24,977 bases of DNA. It comes from a virus. Its lineage: Duplodnaviria > Heunggongvirae > Uroviricota > Caudoviricetes. Below the pieces are notes generated by a model that saw only the letters and a program-made list of their open reading frames with translations, did no database searches and was not told the origin of the DNA. The position numbers and the translations under genes were made by a program. The DNA is taken from IMG/VR virus record IMGVR_UViG_2778261231_000008; one strand, given 5' to 3'. Below are positions 1,054 through 17,142 of this stretch, in pieces; the stretch's first letter is position 1, and each line of letters begins with the position of its first letter.

Positions 1054-1241
1054 AAAAAATGCCCTCCAGTAGAGAGCATTTTTACTGTATGTATAACCAG
1101 TGTCAATGTATGAAATCCTACGACCATACATCTCACTGAAGCCATAATGAAGTTGGCTATTCTTTTTGCTATGTGAGCATGTAACTTTTGCGGTTAACCT
1201 GCGGCTCATTTTTATTTTAGACGCAGATATAAAAGCAAAAG

Positions 1242-1433
1242 TTATCGTGAGTTTTTAGTACAGATTTTTTTGGATTTACTAATAGTTCCATCATTGCAAA
1301 CGAATTTGCCATCTGAGGTACAGTGAGAAACACCTCCCTTTTTCCCTGAGCAGGGATAATTTCTAGCATAGGTAGTTAGTGGGTTTAATAACAAAGAACA
1401 TGACAAAACCACAAAAAATACCTTACCAAGCAT
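1242..1433 (-). CDS. Small Cys-rich protein with N-terminal hydrophobic signal-like segment (63 aa), function unknown
   Basis: ATG at 1431..1433 preceded by GGGAGGAAA; [16 protein letters not shown] hydrophobic N-terminus then a 6-Cys region; AT-rich by eye; sits between int and the repressor. Confidence 0.45.
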
Positions 1434-1448
1434 AGTTTCCTCCCGGTA

Positions 1449-2018
1449 CTATTTAACATACCTGACTGTTAAACTTATAATTTTACCAATTATTTCAATG
1501 TCTTCTATCTTGCATTCGAAGGCTCTGTTTCCACCCTCGACGAAGATTCTTCCACCGGGTAAACGAGTAATGTCACGGATCGTTATTTCGCCATCAATAC
1601 TTATTACCCATTTACCATCACGTATATCATCAAATTCTTTATCACAAATAAATTCAGAATTGTTATCTGTGATGACAAAAGGTTTTTTAAACGTAGAGGG
1701 TAGAAATCCCTTATCAAAAATATAAAAACCGTCTTTCTGCAATGCTCCATCAGACAATAAATATTTTTCTACTTCTATAGTATTTGTATTTGCTGATGCT
1801 TGCTTTGAACCATGCCCTGTTGTTAGCCAATTAAGCGAGGTGCCCGTTTCAAGGGCGCACTGGATTACCCAATCTGCTGGAAAAATATCACGCATATAGC
1901 GCGTTGCCATGGTGCTCTTAGAAACACCTAAATGATCACAGAGAGCCTGACGGGTACCGAACCCATATGCTTCAACTAAACGTTCTATGGCTTTCTTACC
2001 GCCGCTATTGAAATCCAC
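1449..2018 (-). CDS. cI: Phage 186 CI-like immunity repressor (HTH), no LexA-like S24 autocleavage motif seen
   Basis: The track ORF 1449..2105 begins with GTG; a GTG at 2016..2018 with an upstream GGAGG gives about 189 aa, matching 186 CI length. HTH region ...IERLVEAYGFGTRQALCDHLGVSKSTMATRY...CALETGTSLNWLTTG; no G-D/N-S-M peptidase motif. Start codon is uncertain. Confidence 0.65.
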   Translation of the reverse strand: MDFNSGGKKAIERLVEAYGFGTRQALCDHLGVSKSTMATRYMRDIFPADWVIQCALETGTSLNWLTTGHGSKQASANTNTIEVEKYLLSDGALQKDGFYIFDKGFLPSTFKKPFVITDNNSEFICDKEFDDIRDGKWVISIDGEITIRDITRLPGGRIFVEGGNRAFECKIEDIEIIGKIISLTVRYVK

Positions 2019-2163
2019 AAGTCCTCCAAAGAAATCCAAAATTCGTTGAAAGATTCCAAAAGCGATCTTAAAGTTGAACCAGAAGTGTTCTTTTGGAGCC
2101 TTCACTACTAATCACGACAAACAACGGCTCGCCACAAGCCATATCTAGAAGGAATGTTGCCTT

Positions 2164-2367
2164 ATGACACCTAACATTTCAATTACTCTGAATACACCAC
2201 ATGTCACAATCGAACGTTATAGCGAACTGACTGGCCTTTCTATTGATACGATTAACGACATGTTGGCTGATGGTCGACTACCTCGTCATCGTCTTCGTAA
2301 AGACAAAAAACGTGAAAAGGTAATGATTAACCTGGCTGCTCTGACTGTTGATGCTTTGTCTGCTTAA
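2164..2367 (+). CDS. apl: Apl/Cox-like excisionase / lytic-switch regulator (small HTH protein)
   Basis: 67-aa ORF divergent from the repressor; HTH-like segment [27 protein letters not shown] followed by a basic tail; position between cI and cII as in phage 186. Confidence 0.55.
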
Positions 2368-2431
2368 TAGACGTCTATTTTCGCAATAAGACGCTGAGTT
2401 CGATTTTGCGATAAGTTCGGAGTTGAAAACC

Positions 2432-2941
2432 ATGTTTGATTACCAAGTTTCCAAACATCCACATTTTGATGAAGCCTGTCGTGCATTCGCACTGCGCCAC
2501 AATCTGGTGCAACTGGCAGAACGTGCGGGCATGAATGTGCAGATTCTGCGGAACAAGCTGAACCCAGCTCAACCTCATTTATTAACCGCACCAGAAATCT
2601 GGCTGCTTACCGATCTGACTGAAGATTCAACGTTGGTAGATGGTTTTCTGGCACAGATTCATTGTCTGCCATGTGTACCGATTAATGAGGTAGCAAAAGA
2701 GAAACTGCCGCATTACGTCATGAGCGCAACTGCAGAGATCGGGCGTGTTGCAGCAGGTGCGGTATCTGGTGATGTAAAAACTAGTGCCGGTCGTCGTGAT
2801 GCTATCAGCAGCATTAACTCTGTAACACGACTGATGGCGCTGGCTGCTGTTTCATTGCAGGCCCGTTTACAGGCTAACCCTGCGATGGCGAGTGCAGTTG
2901 ATACTGTGACTGGCCTCGGTGCTTCATTCGGTTTGCTGTGA
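2432..2941 (+). CDS. cII: Phage 186 CII-like lysogeny establishment activator
   Basis: ATG at 2432 with GGAG 9 nt upstream (the track starts at an upstream TTG); 169 aa; sequence [23 protein letters not shown]...[24 protein letters not shown] recalls the 186 CII family; immediately downstream of apl. Confidence 0.7.
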
Positions 2942-2948
2942 GGTGCTT

Positions 2949-3245
2949 ATGCTGACGAAAGAACCATCATTTGCGTCGCTGCTGGTAAAACAAAGTCCGG
3001 CAATGCACTACGGTCACGGCTGGATCACGGGTGAGGATGGAAAACGCTGGCATCCATGTCATTCACAAGATGAATTGCTGTCTGAATTGACCACGAGGAA
3101 ACGGAGAAAGTCCAAATGTATGCGGCAGAAAGTGAAGTGGTTTATCAGTTTCGTTACAGAGGGGAGAGTTATTCAGTACCTGAAGATGATTTGCTCTGTT
3201 GCTATCCGTCATTGTCGGGCGATGGCAGTTACTTTTTCACGTTAA
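2949..3245 (+). CDS. Hypothetical early-region protein
   Basis: ORF from the ATG at 2949 (track ORF 2919..3245); overlaps the next ORF (3116..3340) in another frame by about 130 nt, so one of the two may be spurious or shorter. Confidence 0.3.
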   Translation: MLTKEPSFASLLVKQSPAMHYGHGWITGEDGKRWHPCHSQDELLSELTTRKRRKSKCMRQKVKWFISFVTEGRVIQYLKMICSVAIRHCRAMAVTFSR

Positions 3246-3340
3246 AGGATGGGATGTTTTTACGGGGAGTGCAGGTTAAAGAGACGATACGAAAAAATGT
3301 ATCTCCTCTTGAGCGTTACCGTAAGAACAAAGAACGATAG
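3116..3340 (+). CDS. Hypothetical early-region protein (74 aa)
   Basis: ATG at 3116 preceded by GGAGAAAG; a plausible small early gene, possibly in the fil/dhr position of 186-type phages. Confidence 0.4.
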   Translation: MYAAESEVVYQFRYRGESYSVPEDDLLCCYPSLSGDGSYFFTLKDGMFLRGVQVKETIRKNVSPLERYRKNKER

Positions 3341-3362
3341 CTGCGTTTGGGGGATATGAAGT

Positions 3363-3704
3363 ATGGCAATTAATGGCGCTGCAGCAACTGTTCCATTAAG
3401 CCCCGGTGAACGCCTGAATGGACTTAATCATATCGCGGAGTTAAGGGCGAAAGTTTTTGGCCTGAATATTGAGTCAGAGCTTGAGCGGTTTATTAAAGAT
3501 ATGCGTGATCCACGGGATATTAATAGCGAACAAAATAAACGGGCACTGGCTGCCATATTCTTTATGGCAAAAATTCCAGCTGAACGTCATAGCATCAGTA
3601 TTAATGAGCTGACCACTGACGAAAAGCGGGAGTTGATTAAAGTAATGAATCATTTTCGTGCAGTGGTGAGCTTATTTCCCAGACGGTTAACCATGCCGAA
3701 TTAA
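3363..3704 (+). CDS. Hypothetical phage early protein (113 aa)
   Basis: ATG at 3363 with an upstream G-rich Shine-Dalgarno; same orientation as the early operon. Confidence 0.5.
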   Translation: MAINGAAATVPLSPGERLNGLNHIAELRAKVFGLNIESELERFIKDMRDPRDINSEQNKRALAAIFFMAKIPAERHSISINELTTDEKRELIKVMNHFRAVVSLFPRRLTMPN

Positions 3705-3771
3705 CCAACTAATGAAATTAATGGCGTAAACCCGCCGGGCATCCCTTTATCTAAATTCAGGAGAATTGATT

Positions 3772-4005
3772 ATGCATAATATTGAAACCCTCACGACTAA
3801 AACCGGACCGGATGATGCAGGGCTTAATATTTTACTGACAGAGGCCCGTCTGGAAGAACGCCGGGCAAGGGCTGAAGCAATGGCAGCTCGCCTTGATAGC
3901 CTGGCGTGTCATATCACATCTCGCCAACTAAACCACGTCGAAGCGGCAGAACTGTTGCGTGTAACTGCTGAAGCAATCCAGAACGAAGCGCAGGAGATCC
4001 ACTAA
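3772..4005 (+). CDS. Hypothetical phage early protein (about 78 aa)
   Basis: ATG at 3772 preceded by AGGAG at 3758..3762 (the track starts at TTG 3766); the stop overlaps the next gene's start (ATGG). Confidence 0.5.
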   Translation: MHNIETLTTKTGPDDAGLNILLTEARLEERRARAEAMAARLDSLACHITSRQLNHVEAAELLRVTAEAIQNEAQEIH

Positions 4006-4232
4006 TGGCTGATGCAATGGATCTCGTACAGCAGCGCGTTGAAGAAGAACTCCAGCGCCATATTCGTGTTGCCCGTGCCAAAACACCGGGCGTGTCTCGC
4101 GTGCTTTGTATTGAATGTGAAGCGCCAATTCCGCCAGCACGACGCCGCGCCATTCCGGGAGTGCAGCTTTGCATTACCTGCCAGGAAATCGCAGAGCTGA
4201 AAGGCAAACATTACAACGGAGGTGCTGTATGA
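4005..4232 (+). CDS. TraR/DksA-family C4 zinc-finger protein
   Basis: 75 aa with CIECEAPIP...CITCQE (Cx2C-N17-Cx2C) near the C-terminus, typical of phage TraR/DksA-like proteins in P2-like early operons. Confidence 0.65.
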
Positions 4233-4531
4233 CAAGGGCAGTGCGTATCCATCAATTAAAAATTGCACCTAAGTATTTCAACGCTGTGGTTGCAGGTCAA
4301 AAGACGGCTGAACTTCGTAAAGACGATCGTGGCTATAAAGTTGGTGATGTTCTTTCTCTTTGCGAATGGAAGCATGGCGTATTTACGGGTAGGGAATGGG
4401 CCGCTGTTATCTCTCATGTGCTTCCGGTTAATGACGTCATGGCAGTTTCAGAACAATGGGTGATGCTATCAATTCGCCCATTAACCCCATTAGAAGCTTT
4501 AGGATATGTTATTGCAGGAGGTGCTGTATGA
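4229..4531 (+). CDS. Small ASCH/PUA-like domain protein (about 100 aa), tentative
   Basis: ATG at 4229 ([11 protein letters not shown]...) preceded by GGAGG and overlapping the upstream stop; segment [32 protein letters not shown] resembles ASCH/DUF3850-type proteins as I recall them. Confidence 0.45.
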
Positions 4532-5385
4532 GCACCATCCTGAAATGGGCGGGAAATAAAACCGCCATTATGTCCGAACTGAAAAAACACCTTCCTGCTG
4601 GCCCGCGACTGGTTGAACCTTTCGCGGGTTCCTGTGCTGTGATGATGGAGACCGATTACCCCAGCTATCTGGTTGCGGATATTAATCCTGATTTAATCAA
4701 CCTCTATAAAAAGGTTGCCGCTGATTGTGAATCGTTTATATCTCGCGCCAGAGTTTTATTTGAGATCGCAAACAGGGAGGTGGCTTATTACAACATAAGG
4801 CAGGAGTTTAATTACTCCACTGAAATTACTGATTTCATGAAAGCGGTATATTTCCTGTATCTCAATCGTCATGGTTACCGTGGATTATGTCGCTATAACA
4901 AGAGCGGGCATTTCAACATTCCGTACGGTAATTATAAAAATCCGTATTTCCCTGAAAAAGAAATTCGCGCATTTGCAGAGAAAGCCCAGCGGGCAACGTT
5001 TATCTGCGCAAGCTTTGATGAAACGCTGGCGATGCTGCAGGTGGGGGATGTGGTGTATTGCGATCCGCCGTATGACGGTACGTTTTCCGGCTATCACACT
5101 GATGGTTTCACTGAAGATGACCAGTATCACCTGGCATCCGTTCTTGAACATCGGTCATCAGAAGGACATCCGGTCATTGTTTCTAACAGTGACACATCCC
5201 TGATCCGTTCGCTGTATCGCAATTTTACTCACCACTACATCAAGGCAAAACGCAGCATCGGTGTGGCAGCTGGTGAGAGTAAATCTGCAACAGAAATCAT
5301 CGCTGTTTCCGGGCCGCGCTGCTGGGTGGGATTTGATCCTTCGCGTGGCGTGGATAGTTCTGCCGTGTACGGAGTGCGTGCATGA
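4528..5385 (+). CDS. dam: DNA adenine methyltransferase (Dam-like, GATC N6-adenine)
   Basis: ATG at 4528 ([15 protein letters not shown]...) with AGGAGG upstream; close to E. coli Dam throughout, including the N-terminal AdoMet motif (LVEPFAGS), [16 protein letters not shown] and the catalytic DPPY motif. Confidence 0.9.
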
Positions 5386-7766
5386 GCCATGCTGATATGA
5401 ACAACTGCAGCGGCTTTAACGAGGTCGCCGCAGCATTCTCATGGAACAGCCCGAAAAAGGCCATTAACCCTTATCTGGACCCGGCGGAAGTTGCGCCGGT
5501 TTCTGCGCTTTCAAACCTGATCACTCTGTACGCTGCAGATAACGAGCAGGAACAACTGCGCCGCGAGGCACTGAGTGATCAGGTCTGGGAGCGTTATTTC
5601 TTTAATGAATCCCGTGATCCTGTCCAACGCGAAATGGAGCAGGATAAGCTCATTAGCCGGGCAAAGCTGGCGCATGAGCAGCAGCGTTTTAATCCGGACA
5701 TGGTCATACTGGCGGACGTTAACGCCCAGCCTTCCCATATCAGCAAGCCGCTGATGCAACGTATTGAATACTTCAGCAGCCTGGGCAGGCCAAAGGCTTA
5801 TTCCCGCTATTTGCGTGAGACGATTAAGCCATGTCTGGAACGACTGGAGCATGTACGCGAGAGTCAGCTATCCACTTCTTTTCGCTTTATGGCAATCCAT
5901 GAAGGTCTGGACGGCCTGCTGATATTGCCTGAAATGAGTCAGGATCAGGTGAAACGCTTGTCTACTCTTGTCGCTGCGCATATGAGCATGTGTCTTGATG
6001 CCGCTTGTGGTGATTTGTACGCCACCGATGATGTTAAGCCAGAAGAAATCCGCAAGACATGGGAAAAGGTGGCAGCAGAAACCCTGCGACTGGATGTCAT
6101 ACCGCCTGCGTTTGAGCAACTCCGCCGGAAAAGAAACCGCCGTAAACCCGTGCCCTATGAACTCATTCCGGGTTCGCTGGCGCGTATGTTGTGCGCCGAC
6201 TGGTGGTACCGGAAATTATGGAAGATGCGTTGCGAATGGCGGGAAGAGCAGTTGCGCGCTGTCTGCCTGGTCAGCAAAAAAGCATCTCCTTATGTCAGCT
6301 ATGAAGCCGTGATGCATAAACGTGAGCAGCGCCGTAAGTCGCTGGAGTTTTTCCGTTCTCATGAACTGGTGAACGAAGACGGCGACACGCTGGACATGGA
6401 GGATGTGGTAAACGCCAGCAGCAGCAACCCTGCGCATCGCCGCAATGAGATGATGGCCTGTGTTAAAGGTCTGGAGCTTATCGCGGAAATGCGCGGTGAC
6501 TGCGCCGTTTTCTACACCATCACCTGTCCGTCACGTTTCCATTCCACGCTAAATAACGGCAGGCCCAACCCGACCTGGACAAATGCGACGGTAAGACAAA
6601 GCAGTGATTATCTGGTCGGCATGTTTGCTGCATTTCGTAAGGCGATGCACAAAGCCGGATTGCGCTGGTATGGCGTGCGGGTGGCTGAGCCGCATCATGA
6701 CGGTACAGTTCACTGGCACCTGTTGTGTTTTATGCGCAAAAAAGACCGCCGCGCCATCACTGCATTACTGCGTAAGTTTGCCATCCGTGAAGACCGCGAG
6801 GAGCTGGGCAATAACACGGGGCCGCGCTTTAAGTCTGAGTTGATTAACCCGCGCAAAGGAACGCCGACAAGCTACATCGCGAAATATATCAGTAAGAACA
6901 TTGACGGGCGTGGTCTGGCTGGCGAGATCAGCAAGGAAACGGGTAAATCCCTGCGTGATAACGCTGAATACGTGAATGCCTGGGCGTCTCTGCATCGTGT
7001 TCAGCAATTCCGCTTCTTTGGTATTCCGGGGCGTCAGGCTTATCGTGAACTGCGATTGCTGGCTGGTCAGGCGGCAAGGCAGCAGGGTGACAAAAAAGCA
7101 GGTGCGCCGGTACTGGATAACCCACGCCTTGATGCCATCCTAGCTGCTGCTGATGCTGGTTGTTTTGCCACCTACATCATGAAGCAGGGGGGCGTACTGG
7201 TTCCCCGCAAATATCACCTCATCAGAACCGCTTATGAAATCAACGAAGAGCCGACCGCCTATGGTGATCACGGCATTCGTATTTATGGCATCTGGTCACC
7301 CATTGCAGAGGGCAAGATCTGTACTCATGCAGTGAAGTGGAAAATGGTTCGTAAGGCCGTTGACGTTAAGGAGGCGGCAGCCGACCAAAGCGCTTGCGCC
7401 CCTTGGACTCGTGGCAATAACTGTCCCCCTGTTGAAAAAATGTACCAGACAGGGGGCGAATTATCGGGCAGGCAAGAACCTGCAGCCCTGCCGGACTTCG
7501 AGAATATGAGCAAAAAGGAGCTGCGAGAACTGACAGCGAGGCTGCGACTGGTCAAACCGAAGCGCCGGAAAGGGTACAAACAGGAAATTACGGATCACCA
7601 GCGCCTGCAGCTCGATGCGGAACTGAGGTCCAGAGGCTTTGACGCGAGTGAAACGGAAGTTGATCTGCTTCTACGTGGCGGCAGCTTGCCATCTGGAGCC
7701 GGATTGCGGCTGTTCTACCGGAACCAGCGGCTGCAGGAGGATGACAAATGGCGGCAGTGGTACTGA
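5382..7766 (+). CDS. A: Replication initiation endonuclease A (P2 gpA family, rolling-circle)
   Basis: 794 aa; conserved block [19 protein letters not shown] and ...[12 protein letters not shown]... with the active-site tyrosine region typical of P2 A; start overlaps the dam stop. Confidence 0.85.
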
Positions 7767-7844
7767 AAAGCCAGGATTGAGGTTATCTATTAATCAAAGG
7801 GTTAGCTGAGTAAAAAACTATTTCAGCTTTAAATACATATGTTG

Positions 7845-7864
7845 TACTGTATATATAAACAGTA
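7845..7864. promoter_or_regulatory. LexA (SOS) box, TACTGTATATATAAACAGTA (CTGT-N8-ACAG)
   Basis: Near-perfect match to the LexA operator consensus, 17 nt upstream of the GTG start at 7881 and overlapping a likely -10 (TATAAA). Confidence 0.75.
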
Positions 7865-7880
7865 ATAAGGGGAGGGAGTT

Positions 7881-8066
7881 GTGAACGATTTGTTCATGGA
7901 GTCACTTGCACTGCAGCGGATAGAACTTATGGCCCGGCTGGTCGCCAGTTCAGATTGTAGCGATGACGACAAGGAGGTTGCGATTTCGTGGCTGTCGGAG
8001 CTGACGAGCGATCTGGTTACCAGGCTGAATGAATACGGAGTAGGGCAGGATGAGAGTACGCATTAG
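7881..8066 (+). CDS. SOS-regulated small protein (61 aa); possible Tum-like antirepressor or its remnant
   Basis: GTG start preceded by AAGGGGAGGGAG; lies directly downstream of the LexA box and of gene A, the position of the LexA-controlled tum operon in phage 186. No sequence-level recognition of Tum. Confidence 0.45.
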   Translation: MNDLFMESLALQRIELMARLVASSDCSDDDKEVAISWLSELTSDLVTRLNEYGVGQDESTH

Positions 8067-8248
8067 TGATTTCGCACCATGGGAAACTCCCTCCCATATG
8101 GCATCCTGCAGTTTGAGAAAGCAGTGCATGTCTATGGTGCATGGATTCGCATGATCCGAAAAGGATCGCAACGGGTCGGGGCCGCCAGAACTGGCGCGCT
8201 TTCCGGCCCGTCATGCACCTGCATGAAAACCACTACATAAAGCGGGCA

Positions 8249-8267
8249 GGCGTGGCGGGGATACGAG
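8249..8267. other. Possible cos-site remnant (ggcgtggcggggatacgag)
   Basis: The first 13 nt match the 19-nt cohesive-end sequence of P2/186 as I recall it (GGCG[A/T]GGCGGGGAAAGCA...), then it diverges; lies in a GC-rich non-coding stretch between the SOS gene and the cargo cassette. Confidence 0.25.
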
Positions 8268-8401
8268 CGCGCGCTGATGCAACTTGCAGCTATTGTTTAT
8301 TCATGGGGGGGCATCACACACATAACGGACATTTTTGTTTGAAAAATATAGTGATTGAGGCGATTATTGATGTAACGCTATCAACATAACAAAGGCTTCT
8401 T

Positions 8402-10423
8402 ATGAGCAGTTTTTATTATATCCAGCCGGAATTAAAAAACGATTTTAATGCAAGTTTTTTGAATTCTTTGGAAGAGTATTCCAATCGAAAACAGTTGCAG
8501 GTATATGCTATAAAAAATCCTCTCGGGGAAAATAAGTATAACTATGATAGAGATGACGTTCTGGTGTTATTAAGCCCCGGATGCAAAATGGCATTTATTA
8601 ATTTCGGAGATAATAGTGATGAGTTTGAAAATTTCCAAGAGGATTTTGTCGAGGATTTAGGCTCACTATCTGATAAATACAATTATAAAGATACAATTGG
8701 AAGACCACGTGAATGGCGTCGTAACCTGGTCTCGGATTTTATATTCAATGATATCGATGACGATTTAGATGCGTTTTTTGATGAGATTAAACTCGCGGAT
8801 GGATCGCTTGCAAAAAAGAGCGAGTTAATCATCTCGTTGTTGACTGGTAGTATAAACAATATTGATAAAGTAAAAGGGAATGTTCCTGACAATATCCTTG
8901 ATAAAGTTAAGCAAAAAATAATTTTATTTGATGGAGATCAAACTAGATTTGTATATCAGAAGTTTGATAAGAAAAAAGTAATTATTCAAGGGCTTTCAGG
9001 CACGGGCAAGACAGAACTTTTGCTTCACAAGTTGAAAGAAATATATTTGGATAAGAATAATCATGATAGTAAAATAATGTTTACATGTCATAATAAAATC
9101 TTGGCAGATAGTATGAGAAAGAGGATTCCAGAGTTCTTCAACTTTATGAAAGTTGAACAACAAATTAGCTGGAATGATAGATTGTGGTGTGTAAACGCTT
9201 GGGGATCACAATACGATAATAATTCTGGGGCTTATCGTTATATCTGTGAAGCCTATGGGATAAATTTTCATCGCTTCAGCTATGTCATGACCTTTGATAG
9301 AGTTTGTCGCTTAGCATTGGAAGAAATAAGAAAAATCCCTGAAGGTCAATTCAAACATTGCTTTGATTTTATGTTGGTCGATGAAAGTCAGGATTTTCCA
9401 TCAAGTTTTATCGAGCTTTGTGAGTTAGTAACTCGCGATACACTGTATGTAGCAGGTGATATATTTCAAAGTATATTTGATACCAATATTTCTAATGAAA
9501 TCCAACCTGATTTTTTATTGAGTAAGTGTTACAGAACTGACCCGAGAACTTTAATGTTTGCCCATGGAATTGGCATGGGGTTATTTGAGAGTGAGCCTCT
9601 CACATGGCTCGAAAATGACGAGTGGGAAGCATGTGGCTATATTGTGGACCATTTTGAACGTGCCAAGTTGAGATTGAAACGTGAGCCATTACGTAGATTT
9701 GAAGATGTGACTGATGCCAAAATCCATAGTGTTGAATTAGTTAATTCGACATTTGATACTGAAGAAAAAAACATCTTGGATTTATTGCATAAAATCAAAG
9801 CAGAGAATCCAACTGTTCTAGCTGACGATATCGGTATTATTTTTATCGATAAGGCTAAAAGTATCTTCACTATTGCCGATAAGCTTGAAGTCAGTGTTCC
9901 AAGAATTTTTGGTTGGAAAGTGAATAAGGCTTATGAAACCAAAGAAAAAGTAAAGGATACTTTATTTCTTAGTAATAAAAATCATGTAAAGGGGTTGGAG
10001 TTCCCATTTGTTATTTGTGTTACGCGAGATATTAGTAGAAGCCATTCAGATCGAAATTCTTTATATATGATGCTGACTCGATCCTTTATTCGTTCCTATT
10101 TGCTTTTAGGTGATCGTGATGAAAGTCTTCAGGCTGAAATTCAGCGGGGGTTAGAAAACATTAATGCTCATGGCTATATGGAAATTACCATTCCTCCTCA
10201 AGATGTTATCGAAAGAATAAGGACTACAATTAAGTTTGACGAGAAAAGTATTTCCCATTATGACTTGGTGTCTAAGGTGTTCGATGATCTCAATATTGAG
10301 GCTATATTCAGGCCGTCACTATATGAAATTGTGAAGAATATTCTTCCAGACTCTTTTGATGTTGAAAGGATATCAAAAGTCATTTTGTTTAATTACGAAG
10401 AAATGCTTCAGGAGACAAAATGA
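8402..10423 (+). CDS. SF1 (UvrD/Rep-like) helicase-family ATPase with an unassigned ~190-aa N-terminal domain; candidate anti-phage defence protein
   Basis: 673 aa. Walker A GLSGTGKT (nt 8990..9013), motif II LVDESQDF (9374..9397), motif III GDIFQSIF, motif IV CYRTD, C-terminal motif-VI-like MMLTRSFIRSYLL. Visibly AT-rich codon usage unlike the flanking phage genes. Sits between gene A and the portal gene. Confidence 0.75.
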   Translation: MSSFYYIQPELKNDFNASFLNSLEEYSNRKQLQVYAIKNPLGENKYNYDRDDVLVLLSPGCKMAFINFGDNSDEFENFQEDFVEDLGSLSDKYNYKDTIGRPREWRRNLVSDFIFNDIDDDLDAFFDEIKLADGSLAKKSELIISLLTGSINNIDKVKGNVPDNILDKVKQKIILFDGDQTRFVYQKFDKKKVIIQGLSGTGKTELLLHKLKEIYLDKNNHDSKIMFTCHNKILADSMRKRIPEFFNFMKVEQQISWNDRLWCVNAWGSQYDNNSGAYRYICEAYGINFHRFSYVMTFDRVCRLALEEIRKIPEGQFKHCFDFMLVDESQDFPSSFIELCELVTRDTLYVAGDIFQSIFDTNISNEIQPDFLLSKCYRTDPRTLMFAHGIGMGLFESEPLTWLENDEWEACGYIVDHFERAKLRLKREPLRRFEDVTDAKIHSVELVNSTFDTEEKNILDLLHKIKAENPTVLADDIGIIFIDKAKSIFTIADKLEVSVPRIFGWKVNKAYETKEKVKDTLFLSNKNHVKGLEFPFVICVTRDISRSHSDRNSLYMMLTRSFIRSYLLLGDRDESLQAEIQRGLENINAHGYMEITIPPQDVIERIRTTIKFDEKSISHYDLVSKVFDDLNIEAIFRPSLYEIVKNILPDSFDVERISKVILFNYEEMLQETK

Positions 10424-11055
10424 CAAAAGAATATTATTTTAGCCTTGATCAATCTCAATGCGATTGGGCTTTTAAGGCAATTAGAAATAAAAAAGATGTT
10501 ATTGAAATATTAATGAGGGTTTTAAAGACAATTTCAGTATACACTGAACCATCAGCCGATAAAGTTGCTGGTAAGATGAAGTTACATATATCAAAGATGA
10601 GTCGTGTTTTCTTTTTTAGTGAAGGGAAATACTATTCGTTAGCATTCCCCTTTACGCTGGAAGTTAGTGGAGATAATCTTTGCTTCTGTAGCGGTGAAAT
10701 TGAAGTTATTGACAGTTACATTACTTCTAAAGTGCTTGCGATTATTAATGATTCTTCCTATCTCAACCCATCTCTTTGGGCATTTTTTGAGCCACTAGTA
10801 GAGCTTGAGGATCATCAAACTATTCCAGGATTTTGGCAATTTTTCAAAATGCTGCTTACGCATGAGGATGGATACATCAGATATGATGTTGACCCAGATC
10901 CGAGACGATTAGATCCAAGGAGTCACCCTTTACATCATTTTGATGTTTTCTATTCCAATCAGCCAACGTTCAAAATTGGTCTAAGAGAACATTATACTAA
11001 TGATGATATGATTGACTTATTAAATAGAGAAACTGATTGTCATTTTTTTGAATGA
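10420..11055 (+). CDS. Hypothetical 211-aa protein translationally coupled to the helicase; candidate partner/effector
   Basis: Start ATG overlaps the helicase stop (ATGA at 10420..10423); AT-rich; no motif I recognise. Confidence 0.65.
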   Translation: MTKEYYFSLDQSQCDWAFKAIRNKKDVIEILMRVLKTISVYTEPSADKVAGKMKLHISKMSRVFFFSEGKYYSLAFPFTLEVSGDNLCFCSGEIEVIDSYITSKVLAIINDSSYLNPSLWAFFEPLVELEDHQTIPGFWQFFKMLLTHEDGYIRYDVDPDPRRLDPRSHPLHHFDVFYSNQPTFKIGLREHYTNDDMIDLLNRETDCHFFE

Positions 11056-11065
11056 TGTGAACGTT

Positions 11066-11094
11066 AATTTAGCTGGCAATTAGCCAGCTAAATT
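11066..11094. terminator. Perfect 12-bp-arm palindrome (aatttagctggc / gccagctaaatt); likely bidirectional terminator
   Basis: Hairpin between the convergent 3' ends of the cargo operon (+) and the portal fragment (-); weak U-tract on the + strand. Confidence 0.5.
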
Positions 11095-11097
11095 TCA

Positions 11098-11802
11098 TTA
11101 TAATAAGTAGTCTGTAAATTGGATTATATCTTGGTCCAGATAGGTGTTTAATTCTTCAATTCTTTTTTGCAGTGGTAATAACTCATTTCGAACAAAAACA
11201 TTCGCCGCCTTTTCCACATCCCCAAACCCCCCAACATTACTTGGCATAATCCCCATCATCTGCGGTGGTACACGGTGTGCCGCCATCATGTCATCCCGGC
11301 TCACGTTCTTAATGTTCAAAAACTCATCCTTTGCCGCCACTTCTGACAGTGGAATGATCTGAATGCCATCCTTTTTGCCGTTTGGCGAGTACATAAACAG
11401 GTTGCGGAAATTGCCCGGACCTTTGGCGCTTTTCATGGCCTGGCGGATGTTGTTCACGTCCTCCTGGTTCTGCGCGGCGTCAGTCATATACATAATAAAA
11501 CCCGCGTGACTGCCATTGATGTAATACTTCCGGCGGAACAGCGTGGCTGACTCGTTCAGCAGGGCGGAAGGGATAGCGGACAGATATTCCGGCAGGCCGT
11601 AAATCTCCTGGTTCAAATCTGGCTCCATCAGGTGAAAGATGCTGCCTTTGGTAAACTCATACGGCTGCGTGGTCATGCCGTATTGCACAAACCAGTAGGT
11701 GTCTAAATCGATCCCGCGGCGGGTGTATTTCGCCAGCGATGGCTCCAGTGACAGAATCCCGCCCAGTCGGTTCGTCCGTTTCTCCAGGTAACCTGCAGAA
11801 AG
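11098..11802 (-). pseudogene. Q: Portal protein (P2 gpQ family), C-terminal ~234 aa only
   Basis: Portal-like sequence (...FRRKYYINGSHAGFIMYMTDAAQ...HRVPPQMMGIMPSNVGGFG...) ends at the native stop (11098). The N-terminal ~56 aa of the track ORF is GC-rich low-complexity translation of the antisense of gene S, so the 5' part is deleted. Confidence 0.7.
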
Positions 11803-12230
11803 TTGACGCCTGGCTGGCGGCGCTGCTGGCAAATCTGGAACCAGCGGCGCGAAAGCGAATGATGCTGGAGCTGGCGCAACAGCTGCGCCGGAATCAGCAG
11901 AACAACATCCGCCTGCAGCGCAATCCTGATGGGACTGGCTACGAGCCGCGCCGGGTAACGGCCCGAACAAAGAAGGGTCGCATTAAGCGGCAGATGTTCG
12001 CCAAACTCCGCACCACGAAATACCTTAAAACCGCCGCCAGTGCCGACTCTGCCAGCGTAGAGTTTGCCGGGCAGGTACAGCGCATCGCACGGGTGCATCA
12101 TTACGGCTTACGGGATCGTGTAAGCCGTAAGGGGCCGGAGGTGCGGTATACAGAGCGGCGGTTGCTTGGGATAACTGATAATGATCATGAGATGATTAAA
12201 TCAAGCATACTAGGTTTTTTGATTAAGTAG
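11739..12230 (+). pseudogene. S: Tail completion / virion morphogenesis protein S homologue, nearly full length but without its native start
   Basis: From about nt 11799 the ORF reads like P2 S / Mu G family (RNQQNNIRLQRNPDGTGYEPRR...FAGQVQRIARVHHYGLRD). The first ~18 codons are antisense of portal sequence, so the deletion endpoint is at the S start. Confidence 0.55.
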
Positions 12231-13389
12231 TCTGATCTTTTTCTTTAAAATAACCTTCAATTTTTGCAATTAAAAGACTGATGCTTTCTATAAAGTTTTT
12301 TGTTTCGCTCTCACTTGGTTCATGATGAGTGTGTGCGATTTTATCCCGTAAGTTTTTTCGATTCTCATTGGCTGTTTGCCATTCTAGCTGAGCAATCTCT
12401 GGCACAGATATATTGAACTGTTGTCTAAATAGTTGTTTGCACCTTACCTCAAATTTCCAGTTTTTGTTTAGAATGGCCTTAGTTTCGCATTCATCATGGC
12501 CTTTCTTATTAAGTTCATTGATTAGCAATCTAAGGATGTAGCTTTCAAGTCCAGCTGAAGCTTCGATTACGGCAGATCTTAACGCCCCTTTATGAACAAG
12601 GTTGTTCGCTCTAATTATTAATAATTCAGGGTGTTCATTGAATTCATCTGTCATTAATCGACGTTTAAAATCTTCAATCTGAATTTCATTATGATTGTAC
12701 CAACTATTTCGCATTAGTGGTGTTATTATTCCAACCATAGGTATTGAGCTTACCTTAACTCCATCACAGTAATGTTCTTGCAATACGCCGTTAGTGAAAC
12801 CTAACCCTGCTTGATAAAGAGATATTTCATCAGCGAATTGATCATTGAAGGCTACTCTATACTGCTTTATAAAGTGGTTGATTATACCTATGCATTCTTC
12901 AGATTGTTTGGGCGGAAATATCTCTCTAGCAGTTTTTTTGATACTTTCGAGTTTTGCTACCTTCTCAATATCTAAATTGTCCATCGTAGCTATGTGCTCT
13001 TTGGCCTCATCTTCAGATGGGTAATTGTCACCGCTTCGGATCTGACTTCTAATAGTGTTGATAAATTCCTCTTCTGAAAGTTCAGATAGAACCGCGCATT
13101 CGGCAACACTGGCAAGGGAAATTACAGTGCGGCATTTCATTATTCCTCTGTCGTTTAATATGTGTGGTGTTAATTGTTCCTTGGTTCCGAGCAACAAGGT
13201 TTGTGGGAAAAGATAAGCATCTTTGAATAATGTATAATAATCATTGTGTACAGTTAAACAAAGTTCAGTGTGTTCATAAATAAAATTATATATCCCATCG
13301 GGAATGTTCAGGACATACGGTAATTCAACTAAATAACGAGCCGCGAAAATCATGTGGTCCATCTCCATATGAGAATTGCATTGTGCCAT
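12223..13389 (-). CDS. Hypothetical 388-aa cargo protein with a C-terminal Rx4H (HEPN-like) motif; candidate abortive-infection/defence gene
   Basis: AT-rich reverse-strand ORF between S and V (the orf30 position of P2). Motif RDKIAH at nt 12331..12348. Start uncertain: the ATG at 13351..13353 has the better Shine-Dalgarno (GGAGA). Confidence 0.6.
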   Translation of the reverse strand: MAQCNSHMEMDHMIFAARYLVELPYVLNIPDGIYNFIYEHTELCLTVHNDYYTLFKDAYLFPQTLLLGTKEQLTPHILNDRGIMKCRTVISLASVAECAVLSELSEEEFINTIRSQIRSGDNYPSEDEAKEHIATMDNLDIEKVAKLESIKKTAREIFPPKQSEECIGIINHFIKQYRVAFNDQFADEISLYQAGLGFTNGVLQEHYCDGVKVSSIPMVGIITPLMRNSWYNHNEIQIEDFKRRLMTDEFNEHPELLIIRANNLVHKGALRSAVIEASAGLESYILRLLINELNKKGHDECETKAILNKNWKFEVRCKQLFRQQFNISVPEIAQLEWQTANENRKNLRDKIAHTHHEPSESETKNFIESISLLIAKIEGYFKEKDQTT

Positions 13390-13399
13390 TCGCTACACA
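13382..13399 (+). promoter_or_regulatory. TGT-N12-ACA dyad (tgtgccattcgctacaca), possible Ogr-dependent late promoter element for V
   Basis: Fits the TGT-N12-ACA half-site spacing of P2 late promoters as I recall it, but the centre lies only ~55 nt from the V start codon, closer than expected; a possible -10 (TAAATAT) at 13431..13437. Confidence 0.2.
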
Positions 13400-13444
13400 T
13401 TGCCACAAAGATGAAAAAAAATCCTGCTTTGTAAATATACGAGC

Positions 13445-14023
13445 ATGAACGCACAACTCACAGAAATCATGCGCCTTATCACCAACCTGATCCGCACCGG
13501 AACTGTAACGCAAGTGGACCGGGACAACTGGCTGTGCCGGGTGAAAACGGGCGACCTCGAAACCAACTGGATTAACTGGCTGACGCTGCGTGCGGGCAAT
13601 TCACGCACCTGGTGGAAACCGTCCGTGGGGGAGCAGGTTGTGCTGTTCAGCCTGGGCGGCAATCTGGAAACCGCGTTTGCGCTGCCTGCTGTCTACTCAA
13701 ATCAGTTTCCTCCCCCGTCCGATTCTGAGGACGGCAGCGTGACGGAATACCCGGACGGCGGCTGGTTTGAGTACGAGCCTTCAACCGGGCGCTGGTACGT
13801 CCGGGGCATCAAGTCGATGGTTATCGAGGCGTCGGATAACGTCACCTTTAAAACCGGGGAATTTGTCGTGGAAGCTGACACCACCCGCATTAATAGCGAC
13901 GTGGTGATCAACGGGGCTGTCACCCAGGGCGGCGGCCCGATGAGTTCTAATGGGATCGTGGTGGATGACCATGCGCACAACAAAGTGAAGTCCGGCGGCG
14001 AGACATCAGGAGGCCCGGTATGA
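13445..14023 (+). CDS. V: Baseplate spike/assembly protein V
   Basis: 192 aa; close to P2 gpV (IRTG..., WLTxRAGxSRTWWxPSVGEQV, C-terminal SSNG...H.HxxGG). Confidence 0.88.
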   Translation: MNAQLTEIMRLITNLIRTGTVTQVDRDNWLCRVKTGDLETNWINWLTLRAGNSRTWWKPSVGEQVVLFSLGGNLETAFALPAVYSNQFPPPSDSEDGSVTEYPDGGWFEYEPSTGRWYVRGIKSMVIEASDNVTFKTGEFVVEADTTRINSDVVINGAVTQGGGPMSSNGIVVDDHAHNKVKSGGETSGGPV

Positions 14024-14379
14024 CGATGTATTCCGGCATGAGTAGTGCCACGGGCAAGGCCATCACCGACACCGAACATCTGCGCCAGTCCGTGAAGGAC
14101 ATCCTGGTCACCCCGCAGGGCAGCCGTATTGCGCGCCGGGAATACGGTTCGCTGCTGTCTGCCCTGATTGACCAGCCACAAAACCCGGCACTGCGTCTGC
14201 AGATGATGAGCGCGGTGTACGTGGCGCTGATGCGCTGGGAGCCACGGCTGACGCTGGATGCTATCGCCATCGACAGCAGTTTTGACGGTTCGATGGTGGT
14301 CGAGCTGACCGGGCGGCGTACCGACGGCGCGCCCGTTTCCCTTTCCGTATCAACAGGAGCAGGTAATGGCAGTTATTGA
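14020..14379 (+). CDS. W: Baseplate protein W (GPW/gp25 family)
   Basis: 119 aa; start overlaps the V stop; P2 gpW-like (PxGSRxxRRxYGSLL...DQPQxPAL). Confidence 0.85.
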   Translation: MTMYSGMSSATGKAITDTEHLRQSVKDILVTPQGSRIARREYGSLLSALIDQPQNPALRLQMMSAVYVALMRWEPRLTLDAIAIDSSFDGSMVVELTGRRTDGAPVSLSVSTGAGNGSY

Positions 14380-15274
14380 CCTTTCCCAGCTACCGCCGCC
14401 GCAGATTGTGGATGTGCCGGACTTTGAGACGCTGCTGGCTGAGCGTAAAGCGGCGTTTGTGGCGCTGCACCCGGCTGACCAGCAGGACGCGGTGCGCCGC
14501 ACACTGGCGCTGGAATCTGAACCGATTACCAAACAGCTGCAAGAAAGTGCCTACCGGGAAATCCTTCTGCGCCAGCGTATCAACGAGGCGGCGCTGGCGG
14601 TGATGGTGGCCTATGCCAACAGCAGCGACCTGGAGCAGCTCGGCGCTAATTACAACGTTAAGCGCCTCACGGTCACGCCTGCAGATAATGATGCCGTGCC
14701 GCCCGTGGCGGCGGTGATGGAAACCGACGAAGCGCTACGCCTGCGCATCCCGGCAGCCTTTGAGGGGCTGTCTGTGGCGGGACCCACGGCGGCCTACGAG
14801 TTTCACGCCAAAAGTGCCGACGGGCGCGTGGCAGATGCCAGCGCAACCAGCCCGGCCCCGGCTGAGGTAGTGCTGACCGTATTAAGCCGGGAGGGTGACG
14901 GCACGGCGGATGCAGACCTGCTGGCAGTGGTGGAAAAAGCGCTGAGCAGCGAGAGCGTGCGCCCGGTGGCTGACCGCCTGACGGTGCGCGGGGCTTCCAT
15001 TGTGAATTACAGCGTACGCGCCTTGCTCTATCTCTATCCAGGGCCGGAGTCTGAACCCATTCTGGAAGCGGCAAGGGCAAGCCTGCAGAAGTACATCGCC
15101 AGCCAGACCCGGCTGGGGCGGGATATTCGCCTGAGCGCTATCTATGCGGCCCTGCATGTTGAGGGCGTGCAGCGGGTGGAACTGCTTTCGCCGCTGGCGG
15201 ACGTGGTGCTGGATAAAACCCAGGCCGCCTCCTGCACTGACTGGAGCGTGAGCATTGGGGGCACGGATGAATAG
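14366..15274 (+). CDS. J: Baseplate assembly protein J
   Basis: 302 aa; MAVIDLSQLPPP... and FEGLSVAG...GRSADGRVAD...LYLYPGPESEPI match P2 gpJ. Confidence 0.9.
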   Translation: MAVIDLSQLPPPQIVDVPDFETLLAERKAAFVALHPADQQDAVRRTLALESEPITKQLQESAYREILLRQRINEAALAVMVAYANSSDLEQLGANYNVKRLTVTPADNDAVPPVAAVMETDEALRLRIPAAFEGLSVAGPTAAYEFHAKSADGRVADASATSPAPAEVVLTVLSREGDGTADADLLAVVEKALSSESVRPVADRLTVRGASIVNYSVRALLYLYPGPESEPILEAARASLQKYIASQTRLGRDIRLSAIYAALHVEGVQRVELLSPLADVVLDKTQAASCTDWSVSIGGTDE

Positions 15275-15872
15275 CCTGCTGCCGCCTGGTTCGTCAGCAC
15301 TTGAGCGCCGACTGGCGGAGAGCTGCAGCGGCATTTCCGATCTGCAGGTGCCCCTGCGTGACCTCTGGAGCCCGGCAACGTGTCCGGTTGCCTTTTTGCC
15401 GTATCTGGCATGGGCATTTTCCGTGGACCGCTGGGACGAAAGCTGGGCGGAAAGCGTGAAACGCCGGGTGGTGCAGGATGCCTTTTACATTCATCAGCAC
15501 AAGGGCACAACCAGCGCCGTGCGGCGGGTGGTGGAGCCGTTCGGTTTCCTGATCCGCATTCTGGAGTGGTGGCAGACCAACGAGGCCCCCGGCACGTTCC
15601 GGCTGGACATTGGCGTGCAGGACCAGGGGATTACGGAGGAAACCTATCTGGAGCTGGAGCGCCTGATCGGTGACGCCAAACCCTGCAGCCGCCATCTGAT
15701 TGGCATGTCAATCAACCTGCAGACGAGCGGCCCGTTTTGGGTAGGGGCTGGCACCTACATCGGGGAGGAAATCACCGTCTACCCGTATATCAACGAAACC
15801 ATTACTTCCGGCGGCCCGGCCTTTGCGGGCGGGGCGGTCCATGTTATTGACACAGTGAGAGTGAACCCATGA
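15267..15872 (+). CDS. I: Baseplate/tail protein I
   Basis: Start at the ATG at 15267 (MNSLLPPGSS...), internal to the track ORF; LPxLAWAFSVDRWDE...GTFRLDIGV matches P2 gpI. Confidence 0.85.
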   Translation: MNSLLPPGSSALERRLAESCSGISDLQVPLRDLWSPATCPVAFLPYLAWAFSVDRWDESWAESVKRRVVQDAFYIHQHKGTTSAVRRVVEPFGFLIRILEWWQTNEAPGTFRLDIGVQDQGITEETYLELERLIGDAKPCSRHLIGMSINLQTSGPFWVGAGTYIGEEITVYPYINETITSGGPAFAGGAVHVIDTVRVNP

Positions 15873-16717
15873 GCGCAAAATTTTACACCCTGCTGACGGA
15901 CATTGGCGCGGCAAAACTGGCAAGTGCTGCCGCGCTCGGTGTCCCGCTGAAAATTACCAAAATGGCAGTGGGCGACGGGGGCGGTGTGCTGCCGACACCC
16001 AGCGCGCAGCAGACTGGCCTGATTGCAGAAAAGCGCCGCGCCGACCTGAATATGCTCTACATCGACCCGCAGAACAGCAGCCAGATTATTGCGGAGCAGG
16101 TTATTCCTGAAACGGAAGGCGGTTGGTGGATTCGTGAAGTCGGGCTGTTTGATGAGACAGGCGCGCTGATTGCCGTCGGCAACTGCCCTGAAAGCTACAA
16201 GCCGCAGCTGGCGGAGGGCAGCGGGCGCACACAGACCGTGCGCATGGTGCTGATCACCAGTAGCACCGATAACATCACCCTGAAAATTGACCCGGCGGTG
16301 GTGCTGGCAACTCGCAAGTATGTAGATGACAAGGTGCTTGAGCTAAAGGTGTACGTGGATGACCAGATGGCGAAACATATCGCCGCGGTTGATCCCCATA
16401 CGCAGTATGCGCCAAAGACTAGCCCGACCTTTACCGGAACACCAAAAGCACCCACTGCGGCGTCAGGCAATAACACCACCCAGCTTGCCACCACGGCATT
16501 TGTGCAGGCCGCTATTGCGGCGCTGGTCAATTCCTCCCCTGGCGCACTGGACACGCTGAACGAGCTGGCTGCAGCGCTGGGCAATGATCCGAACTTCGCC
16601 ACCACCATGACCAATGCGCTTGCGGGGAAAATGGGTAAGGCTGCCAATCGGCCTGTAGTAACCCATAACGGTGCGGGCTACCGCGCCAGAACTCACTTTT
16701 TCAGGACAAGAACATGA
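15869..16717 (+). pseudogene. H: Tail fibre protein H, N-terminal ~254 aa only
   Basis: N-terminal and conserved middle block (...SSPGALDTLNELAAALGNDPNFATTMTNALAGK) match P2 gpH; after about nt 16630 the frame runs ~28 unrelated codons to a stop. P2 H is about 670 aa. Confidence 0.8.
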
Positions 16718-17016
16718 GCGACAAAACAAACGAAAAAACTGTGGTACTGGATACGCCAATCCTGCGCGGCAAAAGCGAAATCAAAGAGGTGGTGCTGCGT
16801 AAACCCCAGTCTGGTGCGCTGCGTGGCACCCGCCTGCAGGCCATTATGGATATGGACGTGGGCGCGATGATGACCATCATTCCGCGAATCTCCAGCCCGA
16901 CGCTGACCCCGCAGGAAATGGCGGAGCTGGACCCGGCAGACCTCACCGCAATGTCCGTGGAGGTGGTCACTTTTTTGTTGAAGAAGTCGGTGCTTGCCGA
17001 TTTGCCGACAGCCTGA
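16714..17016 (+). CDS. E: Tail assembly chaperone E
   Basis: 100-aa ORF upstream of the tape-measure gene, carrying the slippery heptamer T_TTT_TTG. Confidence 0.8.
   Translation: MSDKTNEKTVVLDTPILRGKSEIKEVVLRKPQSGALRGTRLQAIMDMDVGAMMTIIPRISSPTLTPQEMAELDPADLTAMSVEVVTFLLKKSVLADLPTA
16971..16977 (+). other. Programmed -1 frameshift site T_TTT_TTG producing the E' (E+E') product that terminates at 17150
   Basis: My manual -1 frame translation from 16977 runs open to a TGA at 17148..17150, overlapping the T start; this mirrors the E/E' arrangement in P2. Confidence 0.7.
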
Positions 17017-17142
17017 CGGTTGATGACCTGGTGGCAGATATTGCCACCATTTTTCACTGGCCGCCGTCCGTCACTGACGTTATGCCGCTGACTGAGGTGC
17101 TGGAGTGGCGGCATAAAGCAATCCTGAGAAGCGGGGCCAGCG

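Follow-up and report, generated by a model that had tools for sequence, protein, structure and literature searches.

In the window, by which we mean the whole 24,977-nucleotide stretch of DNA analysed (IMG/VR record IMGVR_UViG_2778261231_000008), the 3' part of a phage portal gene lies on the minus strand, back to back with a plus-strand gene S that has no start codon. This arrangement raises the question of whether the head, packaging and lysis genes of a P2-like prophage have been lost between the two, as an earlier note on this DNA had proposed, and if so from which parent and by which route. Our analyses indicate that the site is very probably the scar of one spontaneous deletion of 7,638 bp in an integrated P2-like prophage at the rcdA-ybjL locus of Escherichia coli. 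We met no evidence against the deletion itself.

A P2-like prophage between rcdA and ybjL

The window is a piece of the E. coli chromosome. Its right end, which carries ybjL, ybjM and grxA, shares 99.3% identity with thousands of E. coli genomes, with the aspartate:alanine antiporter YbjL encoded by a 561-aa ORF (22358-24043). A P2-like prophage of ~22.1 kb, of the Fels-2/SEN8 (Felsduovirus) type, lies between rcdA and ybjL. It is bounded by a 23-nt direct repeat, of which 22 positions are shared by the attL core at its left boundary (19-41) and the attR core at its right boundary (22123-22145). The latter adjoins ybjL, and host sequence runs from ~22120 on.

Between these repeats, the genes follow P2-type synteny: int, CI, early genes, a Dam-type methylase, the replication gene A, cos and the portal gene (Q), then S, V, W, J, I and H, then E, T, U, D and ogr. 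This order is colinear with SEN8 and with the intact prophage of E. coli CP8-3_Sichuan, found at the same rcdA-ybjL site, except for two gaps. The remnant does not harbour the complete head, packaging, lysis and tail gene set of a functional Peduoviridae prophage, as P, O, N, M, L, X, Y, K, lysA, lysB, lysC, R, G, FI and FII are absent and only truncated forms of Q, S and H are left. Intact ORFs include gene A (5382-7766), int, CI and ogr, as well as the baseplate genes V, W, J and I and the genes E, T, U and D. The cos site (8249-8267, plus strand) has been kept as well: positions 8249-8274 of the window are 100% identical to SEN8 1-26, whose first 19 nt are annotated as putative cos.

The phage-like GC content of the prophage (55-60%) is broken by two low-GC cargo blocks, one between cos and the portal gene (8402-11055) and one between S and V (12223-13353). 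The first is an intact plus-strand operon coding for a 673-aa STM2767-family helicase and its 211-aa STM2766-family partner (profiles NF053713, 974 bits, and NF053714, 214 bits; PADLOC 'Helicase', E=4.7e-28; GC 0.27-0.43). Its 3' end adjoins the 3' end of the portal fragment. The operon occupies the cos-proximal gpA-gpQ region, a defence hotspot of P2-like phages (PMC9122126). The second block is a minus-strand ORF of 376 aa in the S/V intergenic slot, where P2 has orf30. It converges on the S remnant, with an overlap of 8 nt between the two. This ORF matches phrog_28299 (E=1e-191), a family with no function assigned there, and it is found unchanged beside a full-length S in the intact relatives L017 and L019-L022. 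We found no Pfam family for the 376-aa and 211-aa cargo proteins, and the sole PADLOC match for these two is a weak one to the 376-aa ORF (E=9e-4).

Intact relatives and known phages

We identified relatives by looking up the exact 211-aa cargo protein, which in those genomes is encoded beside a full-length portal gene (343 aa) and a complete late region. One of them is an intact prophage on contig k141_2125 of ENA ERZ27257929, represented by our entries L017 and L034. It is inserted at the same ybjL site, with the same host flanks, the identical STM2766-family protein and the 376-aa ORF. Similar intact prophages are present in GCA_012774615.1 and GCA_025283215.1. The k141_2125 prophage is 98.8% identical to the window over positions 4517-11790 and 99.9% identical over both 11789-16651 and 16645-24977. 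It possesses the two blocks missing from the window (7,638 and 3,051 bp), a portal gene of 343 codons and an S gene of 148 codons with a GTG start. The immunity and early genes at the left end of the window (46-4232) are merely 89-96% identical to it, and thus that part is mosaic.

In the phage collection, the closest sequenced phages are SEN8 and Fels-2 (Felsduovirus, Peduoviridae), with 89.7% DNA identity to the portal fragment and 79.8% to S. Their gene order is colinear with that of the window, and they also have accessory genes at the cos/portal and S/V positions. Both are complete phages of 33.7-35.2 kb, and SEN8 harbours an invertible tail-fibre segment and an invertase that are missing in the parent of the window. 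P2 and 186 share the same operon logic, with divergent P-Q and O...S late operons, and P2 has the nonessential orf30 between S and V. Their homology to the window amounts at the protein level to 59-60% for the Q/W portal and 41-53% for S/O, and P2 carries other cargo, namely old and tin. The earlier note had suggested mapping the breakpoint by alignment to P2 and 186. This was feasible at the protein level only, as most of the window is too divergent from these two phages for DNA alignment, and its other suggestion, comparison with intact relatives at the same chromosomal site, is the one that located the breakpoint.

The genes on either side of the junction

The portal fragment, a P2 gpQ homologue, comprises codons 114-343 and the stop codon (11098-11790, minus strand); it has lost the PP promoter and the 113 codons for the N-terminus. 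It is the larger part of a mechanical ORF (11098-11970, minus strand) in which ~60 antisense S codons (11791-11970), starting from a TTG at 11970, run in frame into the portal sequence as a reciprocal chimeric frame. Gene callers call only an internal piece of 192 aa of this ORF. The ORF matches Pfam Phage_portal (PF04860) at positions 68-270 of 321, with 46.7 bits for a cut-off of 39.1, and NCBIfam portal_PBSX (TIGR01540) at positions 75-316 of 320, with 278.4 bits for a cut-off of 166.05. Positions 1-74 of TIGR01540 are uncovered, and a full-length portal of ~343 aa is thus not encoded. In BLASTP alignments, residues 60-290 of the ORF correspond to residues 113-343 of the 345-aa portal of E. 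coli HZ13 (94% identity), and the fragment corresponds to residues 111-339 of the 344 of P2 gpQ (59% identity). From residue 114 on, it matches the 343-aa portal of L017.

On the other side, the S remnant, a homologue of the P2 tail completion/virion morphogenesis protein gpS, comprises residues 3-148 and the stop codon (11791-12230, plus strand). Intact S begins with GTG GAT AAC CTG (V-D-N-L-Q-K; VDNLQKVD... in L017), and the window retains this gene from the last base of codon 2 onward, without the GTG start and most of codon 2. The remnant is identical to the S protein of L017 from residue 3. It is also deprived of the PO promoter and of the upstream gene R. Since S and R overlap by 8 nt in intact relatives and R is deleted, the normal translational coupling of S is lost. 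The window therefore holds no complete S gene that has its own start and follows R, with an overlap, in the O late operon.

The joining of the two genes created a chimeric ORF of 163 aa on the plus strand (11739-12230). Its translation starts with 17 codons read antisense to the portal gene (11739-11789; MAPVTESRPVGSSVSPG) and continues with S residues 3-148, codon 18 (AAC) being codon 3 of S. The ORF matches Phage_tail_S (PF05069) with 134.4 bits for a cut-off of 24.3, at positions 2-144 of 148, and tail_comp_S (TIGR01635) with 117.3 bits for a cut-off of 37.65. By BLASTP, its residues 19-162 align to residues 4-147 of the 148-aa S protein of HZ13, and its S part aligns to residues 3-148 of the 150 of P2 gpS. 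In public assemblies it is annotated as a gene of 163 aa; NCBI records name it 'phage virion morphogenesis protein', some of them calling a version of 145 aa. From the end of the cargo operon at 11055 to ATG 11739, the plus strand shows no promoter-like site. This ATG is not preceded by a Shine-Dalgarno motif, and no terminator-like site was detected in 10900-13500. Because a promoter and a ribosome-binding site are missing, the chimeric ORF is probably not expressed, with read-through from the upstream plus-strand cargo operon being conceivable.

These analyses bear out most of what had been read from the sequence at first. The portal and S assignments are sound, with Pfam and NCBIfam scores above cut-offs and BLASTP matches to P2, 186, SEN8 and E. 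coli prophage proteins. The fusion of genes on opposite strands with its in-frame chimeric ORF was retrieved both by mapping against L017 and by translation. Some details needed correction. The surviving portal part is indeed C-terminal, but it is 230 aa long (residues 114-343 of 343) instead of ~234 aa. S has lost its start codon as described, but not just that, the first two bases of codon 2 having gone with it. Finally, the in-frame fusion does start at ATG 11739, but with 17 antisense codons and not 18.

Mapping of the junction to the nucleotide

The L017 coordinates place the deletion junction at 11789-11790, within a TA dinucleotide that is present in both parental sequences. Megablast aligned positions 4517-11790 of the window with L017 4098-11371 (98.8% identity) and positions 11789-13417 with L017 19008-20636 (99.94% identity). 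As these two matches overlap by 2 nt, exactly 7,638 bp of L017 are missing from the window. L034, which represents the same contig, extends the comparison to the right: positions 11789-16651 correspond to L034 2025-6886 (99.96% identity) and positions 16645-24977 to L034 9932-18264 (99.93% identity).

With the break marked by a slash, the parental sequences read ...CTCCAGGTA/GGCG on the portal side and ...GCGTGGATA/ACCTG on the S side. Over longer stretches, the portal-side parent reads ...TTTCTCCAGGTA/GGCGTT and the S-side parent ...AGCGTGGATA/ACCTGCAG, and the window across the junction reads ...TTTCTCCAGG-TA-ACCTGCAG. Homology to the portal DNA ends at 11790 in all relatives aligned (SEN8, HZ13, CP8-3 and L017), and homology to the S DNA begins at 11789 in L017, at 11793 in SEN8 and HZ13 and at 11794 in CP8-3. 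SEN8, HZ13 and CP8-3 thus leave an ambiguity of 2-3 nt at the junction, which the near-identical relatives settle. Base-by-base projection onto five intact relatives revealed no filler bases, no IS remnant and no homology beyond TA. The break after codon 113 of the portal gene, on the minus strand, is hence joined cleanly to a break 5-7 nt into S, on the plus strand, and the microhomology that the earlier note had proposed to look for is limited to these two nucleotides.

Gene content of the lost segment

The deletion took everything from portal codons 1-113 through the GTG start and the first two bases of codon 2 of S. In the intact relatives (L017 and L019-L022), the corresponding block codes for the portal N-terminus, the terminase large subunit (588 aa), the GPO scaffold (277 aa), the capsid protein (360 aa), the terminase small subunit (216 aa), the GPL head completion protein (154 aa), X (67 aa), the holin (71 aa), the lysozyme (169 aa), LysA (125 aa), LysB (141/142 aa), LysC (called in L019) and R (143 aa). 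All the gene classes listed as missing in the earlier note are therefore found between the breakpoints in these relatives. Its estimate of 9-10 kb was too high, as the actual loss is 7,638 bp, and the equivalent interval spans ~8.0 kb in P2 and ~8.3 kb in 186 by arithmetic from their coordinates. According to the P2 annotation, the divergent late promoters PP and PO and an activator-binding site lie between P and O, and S belongs to the O operon. Both late promoters were thus lost with the deletion.

A second deletion in the tail genes

The other gap in colinearity is also a deletion. The window follows L034 up to its position 6883 (window 16647) and again from its position 9932 (window 16645), which leaves a 3-nt microhomology, CAA, at 16645-16647 and 3,051 bp missing relative to L034. 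At this junction, the first 259 of the 471 codons of H are followed by the final 14 nt of the tube gene FII. Codons 260-471 of H, the tail fibre assembly gene, the PF promoter region, the sheath gene FI and the remainder of FII are lost, with PF being placed in the missing intergenic region as in the P2 annotation. The truncated H frame continues for 23 out-of-frame codons and ends at 16717. Among the contigs retrieved, by look-ups that each covered 24 of 100-140 index blocks, none carries one of the two deletions alone. The loss of sheath and tube supports independently that the prophage is cryptic, as had been concluded from the first deletion, and strengthens that conclusion.

Distribution of the junction and other readings of the remnant

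We searched for the exact 163-aa fusion protein and found it on at least 17 contigs, which come from independent E. coli assemblies (NCBI and Logan). One contig is 1.26 Mb long, and GCA_900604275.1 is an example of a carrier. Ten of these contigs were fetched. Over the junction, their identity to the window is 99.985-100%, and the longer contigs reach beyond the second junction as well. As the carrier contigs are near-identical, they probably have a single origin. No single match covered at least 80% of the junction-spanning query in any of 362 matching phage records or of 520 matching complete E. coli genomes (RefSeq), and the phage records listed show portal and S as matches at two distinct locations. 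Thus, no intact phage with this arrangement came up in either set, in agreement with what the earlier note had expected. An exact scan for the junction 41-mer gave no hits in IMG/VR, in the GTDB species representatives or in the JGI metagenomes. In one E. coli lineage, the deletion is a genuine and heritable allele, and the junction is neither an artefact nor a natural phage gene order.

What the remnant does in its host can be read in another way. It might be a mobilisable, satellite-like defence island of ~22 kb derived from P2, dependent on a helper, with two cargo loci and no risk of lysis to its host, a reading that we regard as improbable. On this account, a co-infecting heteroimmune P2-like phage would allow it to be excised, replicated and packaged in trans, for which we see just as little likelihood. 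The remnant does retain cos, gene A, int, a cox-type gene, CI, ogr and att repeats that match at 22 of 23 positions, and the P2 homologue of gene A contains the replication origin according to the P2 annotation. Moreover, defective prophages of E. coli O157 are reported to undergo excision, packaging and transfer via prophage interactions (PMC2669165). Nevertheless, the IMG/VR viral contigs, covered by the 41-mer scan, do not contain the junction, and every copy seen is nearly identical and found at the same chromosomal site, which fits vertical inheritance. We identified no genes for capsid-size redirection or helper derepression, all genes being colinear with those of P2-like phages. The gene and Pfam tables contain neither psu-delta-sid genes nor a P4 primase, which characterize P4-like satellites. 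Only P2-like-colinear genes or hotspot cargo are found between the att sites, and cos alone is common to P4-like satellites, as expected.

The deletion itself could have been produced by a specific system, namely an IS-mediated adjacent deletion, a Hin/Cin-type invertase or the prophage integrase. Many P2-like phages have a tail-fibre invertase, and SEN8 has crossover-like sites at 15244-15269 and 18157-18182. The junction argues against such an origin, which we consider very unlikely: it harbours no IS and no extra bases, the parental breakpoints share TA only, and the att core sequence is not present there. We examined the invertase as a candidate and rejected it. Hix/gix-like sites occur in SEN8 and in the CP8-3 prophage, but neither deletion ends at such a site, the nearest one in SEN8 being 54 bp from the equivalent of the second breakpoint. 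In addition, the near-identical parent has no invertase gene between the tail fibre assembly and sheath genes.

An assembly artefact or chimera that masks an intact prophage in the real genome, for which there is the general ground that short-read assemblers can collapse related prophages of one genome, is hardly credible given that two pipelines (NCBI and Logan) yielded the same exact fusion and that the joint is clean, its flanks being colinear with one prophage between att repeats. Equally far-fetched is a natural, functional head-less machine derived from P2, such as an R-type tailocin, because, although V, W, J, I, E, T, U, D and ogr remain as intact ORFs, the sheath, tube, distal fibre, fibre assembly, holin, lysozyme and spanin genes are deleted, so that a contractile particle can be neither built nor released, and portal and S are visibly truncated but full length in a 99.9%-identical relative. 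The remnant accordingly does not have the gene complement of an R-type tailocin, which dispenses with head genes but combines sheath, tube, baseplate and fibre with a lysis cassette.

Origin of the deletions and fate of the remnant

We thus favour spontaneous deletion within an integrated prophage. Judging from the anatomy of the junction, its most likely mechanism is illegitimate, homology-independent recombination, which could have proceeded by end-joining after a double-strand break or by replication slippage. Both joints are clean, with 2-3 nt shared, and neither is associated with IS sequences or recombinase sites. According to our own estimate, ~15% of random joints should show a microhomology of at least 2 nt by chance. 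Such an overlap consequently says nothing for or against a microhomology-mediated route and does not discriminate end-joining from slippage. No longer imperfect homology was detected near either junction in the parental projections. Similarly, no direct repeats of at least 18 nt in the whole window are related to the junctions. Since the flanks are 99.9% identical to those of an intact prophage at the same site, both deletions are probably recent and would have been inherited within one E. coli lineage.

The remnant would be unable to assemble capsids, to package DNA or to lyse its host. Both gene fragments at the junction, that of the portal gene and that of S, would represent promoterless pseudogenes, and the 163-aa ORF that starts at ATG 11739 is probably an accidental by-product of the in-frame joining of S to the antisense strand of the portal gene. 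The persistence of the element might be explained by the disappearance of the lysis and head genes, which would abolish the cost of induction, together with the maintenance of the immunity genes and of two cargo loci. One may speculate that the deletion conferred a selective advantage and that the remnant is tolerated or even favoured. That the remnant is tolerated while keeping its cargo would fit with the location of the helicase operon in the gpA-gpQ defence hotspot (PMC9122126).

The remnant described here is young and, at ~22 kb, large; apart from its two clean deletions, its ORFs are intact. In 1992, Barreiro and Haggard-Ljungquist reportedly described a P2 remnant in E. coli K-12 that is only a few hundred bases long. 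Defective P2-like prophages that keep conserved defence genes are a common class, in which core functions are lost and the hotspot cargo is nearly identical to that of intact elements, as is the case here (PMC13586616).

Significance

The feature is real but ordinary. It is a textbook scar of prophage decay, of a kind that is already known, and its significance is small beyond correct annotation. In public assemblies, the ORF at 11739-12230 and the 192-aa 'portal' call deserve annotation as pseudogene fragments, and the prophage should be scored as defective in prophage-prediction and induction-risk analyses.

We also observed that at least two other, independently wrecked versions of the intact parent exist. 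The set of wrecked versions might make a small case study of P2-like prophage decay in which the hotspot cargo is kept. The present remnant, with a 99.9%-identical intact parent at the same chromosomal site, provides a clean and datable case in which large deletions, joined with little or no homology, have inactivated a prophage.

A second deletion in the tail genes

The prophage has lost a further 3,051 bp at 16645-16647 (region 16600-16720). The joint is clean, with 3 nt of microhomology (CAA), and it connects codon 259 of the tail fibre gene H to the final 14 nt of the tube gene FII. The distal fibre, fibre assembly, sheath and tube functions are missing as a result, together with the PF promoter region, and the truncated H ORF that remains (15869-16717) ends with 23 out-of-frame codons.

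Mosaicism and the left end

Comparison with the intact relative found at the same rcdA-ybjL site (L017/L034) revealed unequal divergence along the prophage. The immunity/early left end (46-4232) is only 89-96% identical to its counterpart, whereas within 4517-24977 the identity is 98.8% for the replication-to-portal block and 99.9% for the late block and host flank. Based on this difference in identity, the sequences suggest that the left part of the prophage was replaced by recombination. The relative is also devoid of window positions 4233-4516, where the called genes include a DUF3850/ASCH-type ORF.

The integrase reading frame (1-1053, minus strand) crosses the attL core (19-41) and has its stop codon at 1-3. 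The sequence holding this stop is 100% identical to that immediately left of the prophage of E. coli CP8-3_Sichuan, which is inserted at the same site. Thus, judging from the sequence, the coding region for the C terminus of Int seems to extend over the attachment-site core. At its left end, the prophage of CP8-3 instead has an additional gene of 270 nt in this position.

Accessory genes

A two-gene, low-GC cargo operon (8402-11055, plus strand) occupies the cos-proximal gpA-gpQ defence hotspot. It codes for a 673-residue DEAD/DEAH helicase of the STM2767 family (NF053713, 974 bits), which the PADLOC 'Helicase' profile also recognizes (E=5e-28), and for a 211-residue helicase-associated protein of the STM2766 family (NF053714). 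The latter has no match in Pfam or PADLOC and so is not recognizable as DUF2290, which accompanies the helicase in the published helicase + DUF2290 system. The STM2767/STM2766 operon may represent an uncharacterized helicase-based defence pair. Between this operon and the convergent 3' end of the portal gene lies a perfect 12-bp inverted repeat with a 5-nt loop (11066-11094; AATTTAGCTGGC / GCCAGCTAAATT). It has no T-tract and was not scored by the terminator scan; it may form a bidirectional end of the cargo and portal transcription units.

The S/V slot, corresponding to the position of P2 orf30, harbours a low-GC ORF of 376 codons (12223-13353, minus strand), whose 3' end runs 8 nt into the end of S, across its stop codon. 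Its product matches phrog_28299, of unknown function, nearly end to end. It belongs to no Pfam family, and its sole PADLOC match, to PD-T4-2_B, is weak (E=9e-4). Intact relatives carry this ORF unchanged.

Other defective copies of the prophage

Two further loci represent other, independent wrecks of the near-identical prophage. The first (GCA_012252145.1), also at the ybjL site, retains the portal, terminase and scaffold genes but lacks the whole stretch that begins with the capsid gene and ends midway through the tube gene. In the second (GCA_052028265.1), whose host flank lies outside the sequence seen, an inversion joins the C-terminal part of the portal protein to the N-terminal part of baseplate protein J, a fusion called as a 558-residue protein, and additional head genes are lost. 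This type of prophage seems to have been repeatedly inactivated by large rearrangements of the late region, with the cargo remaining identical.
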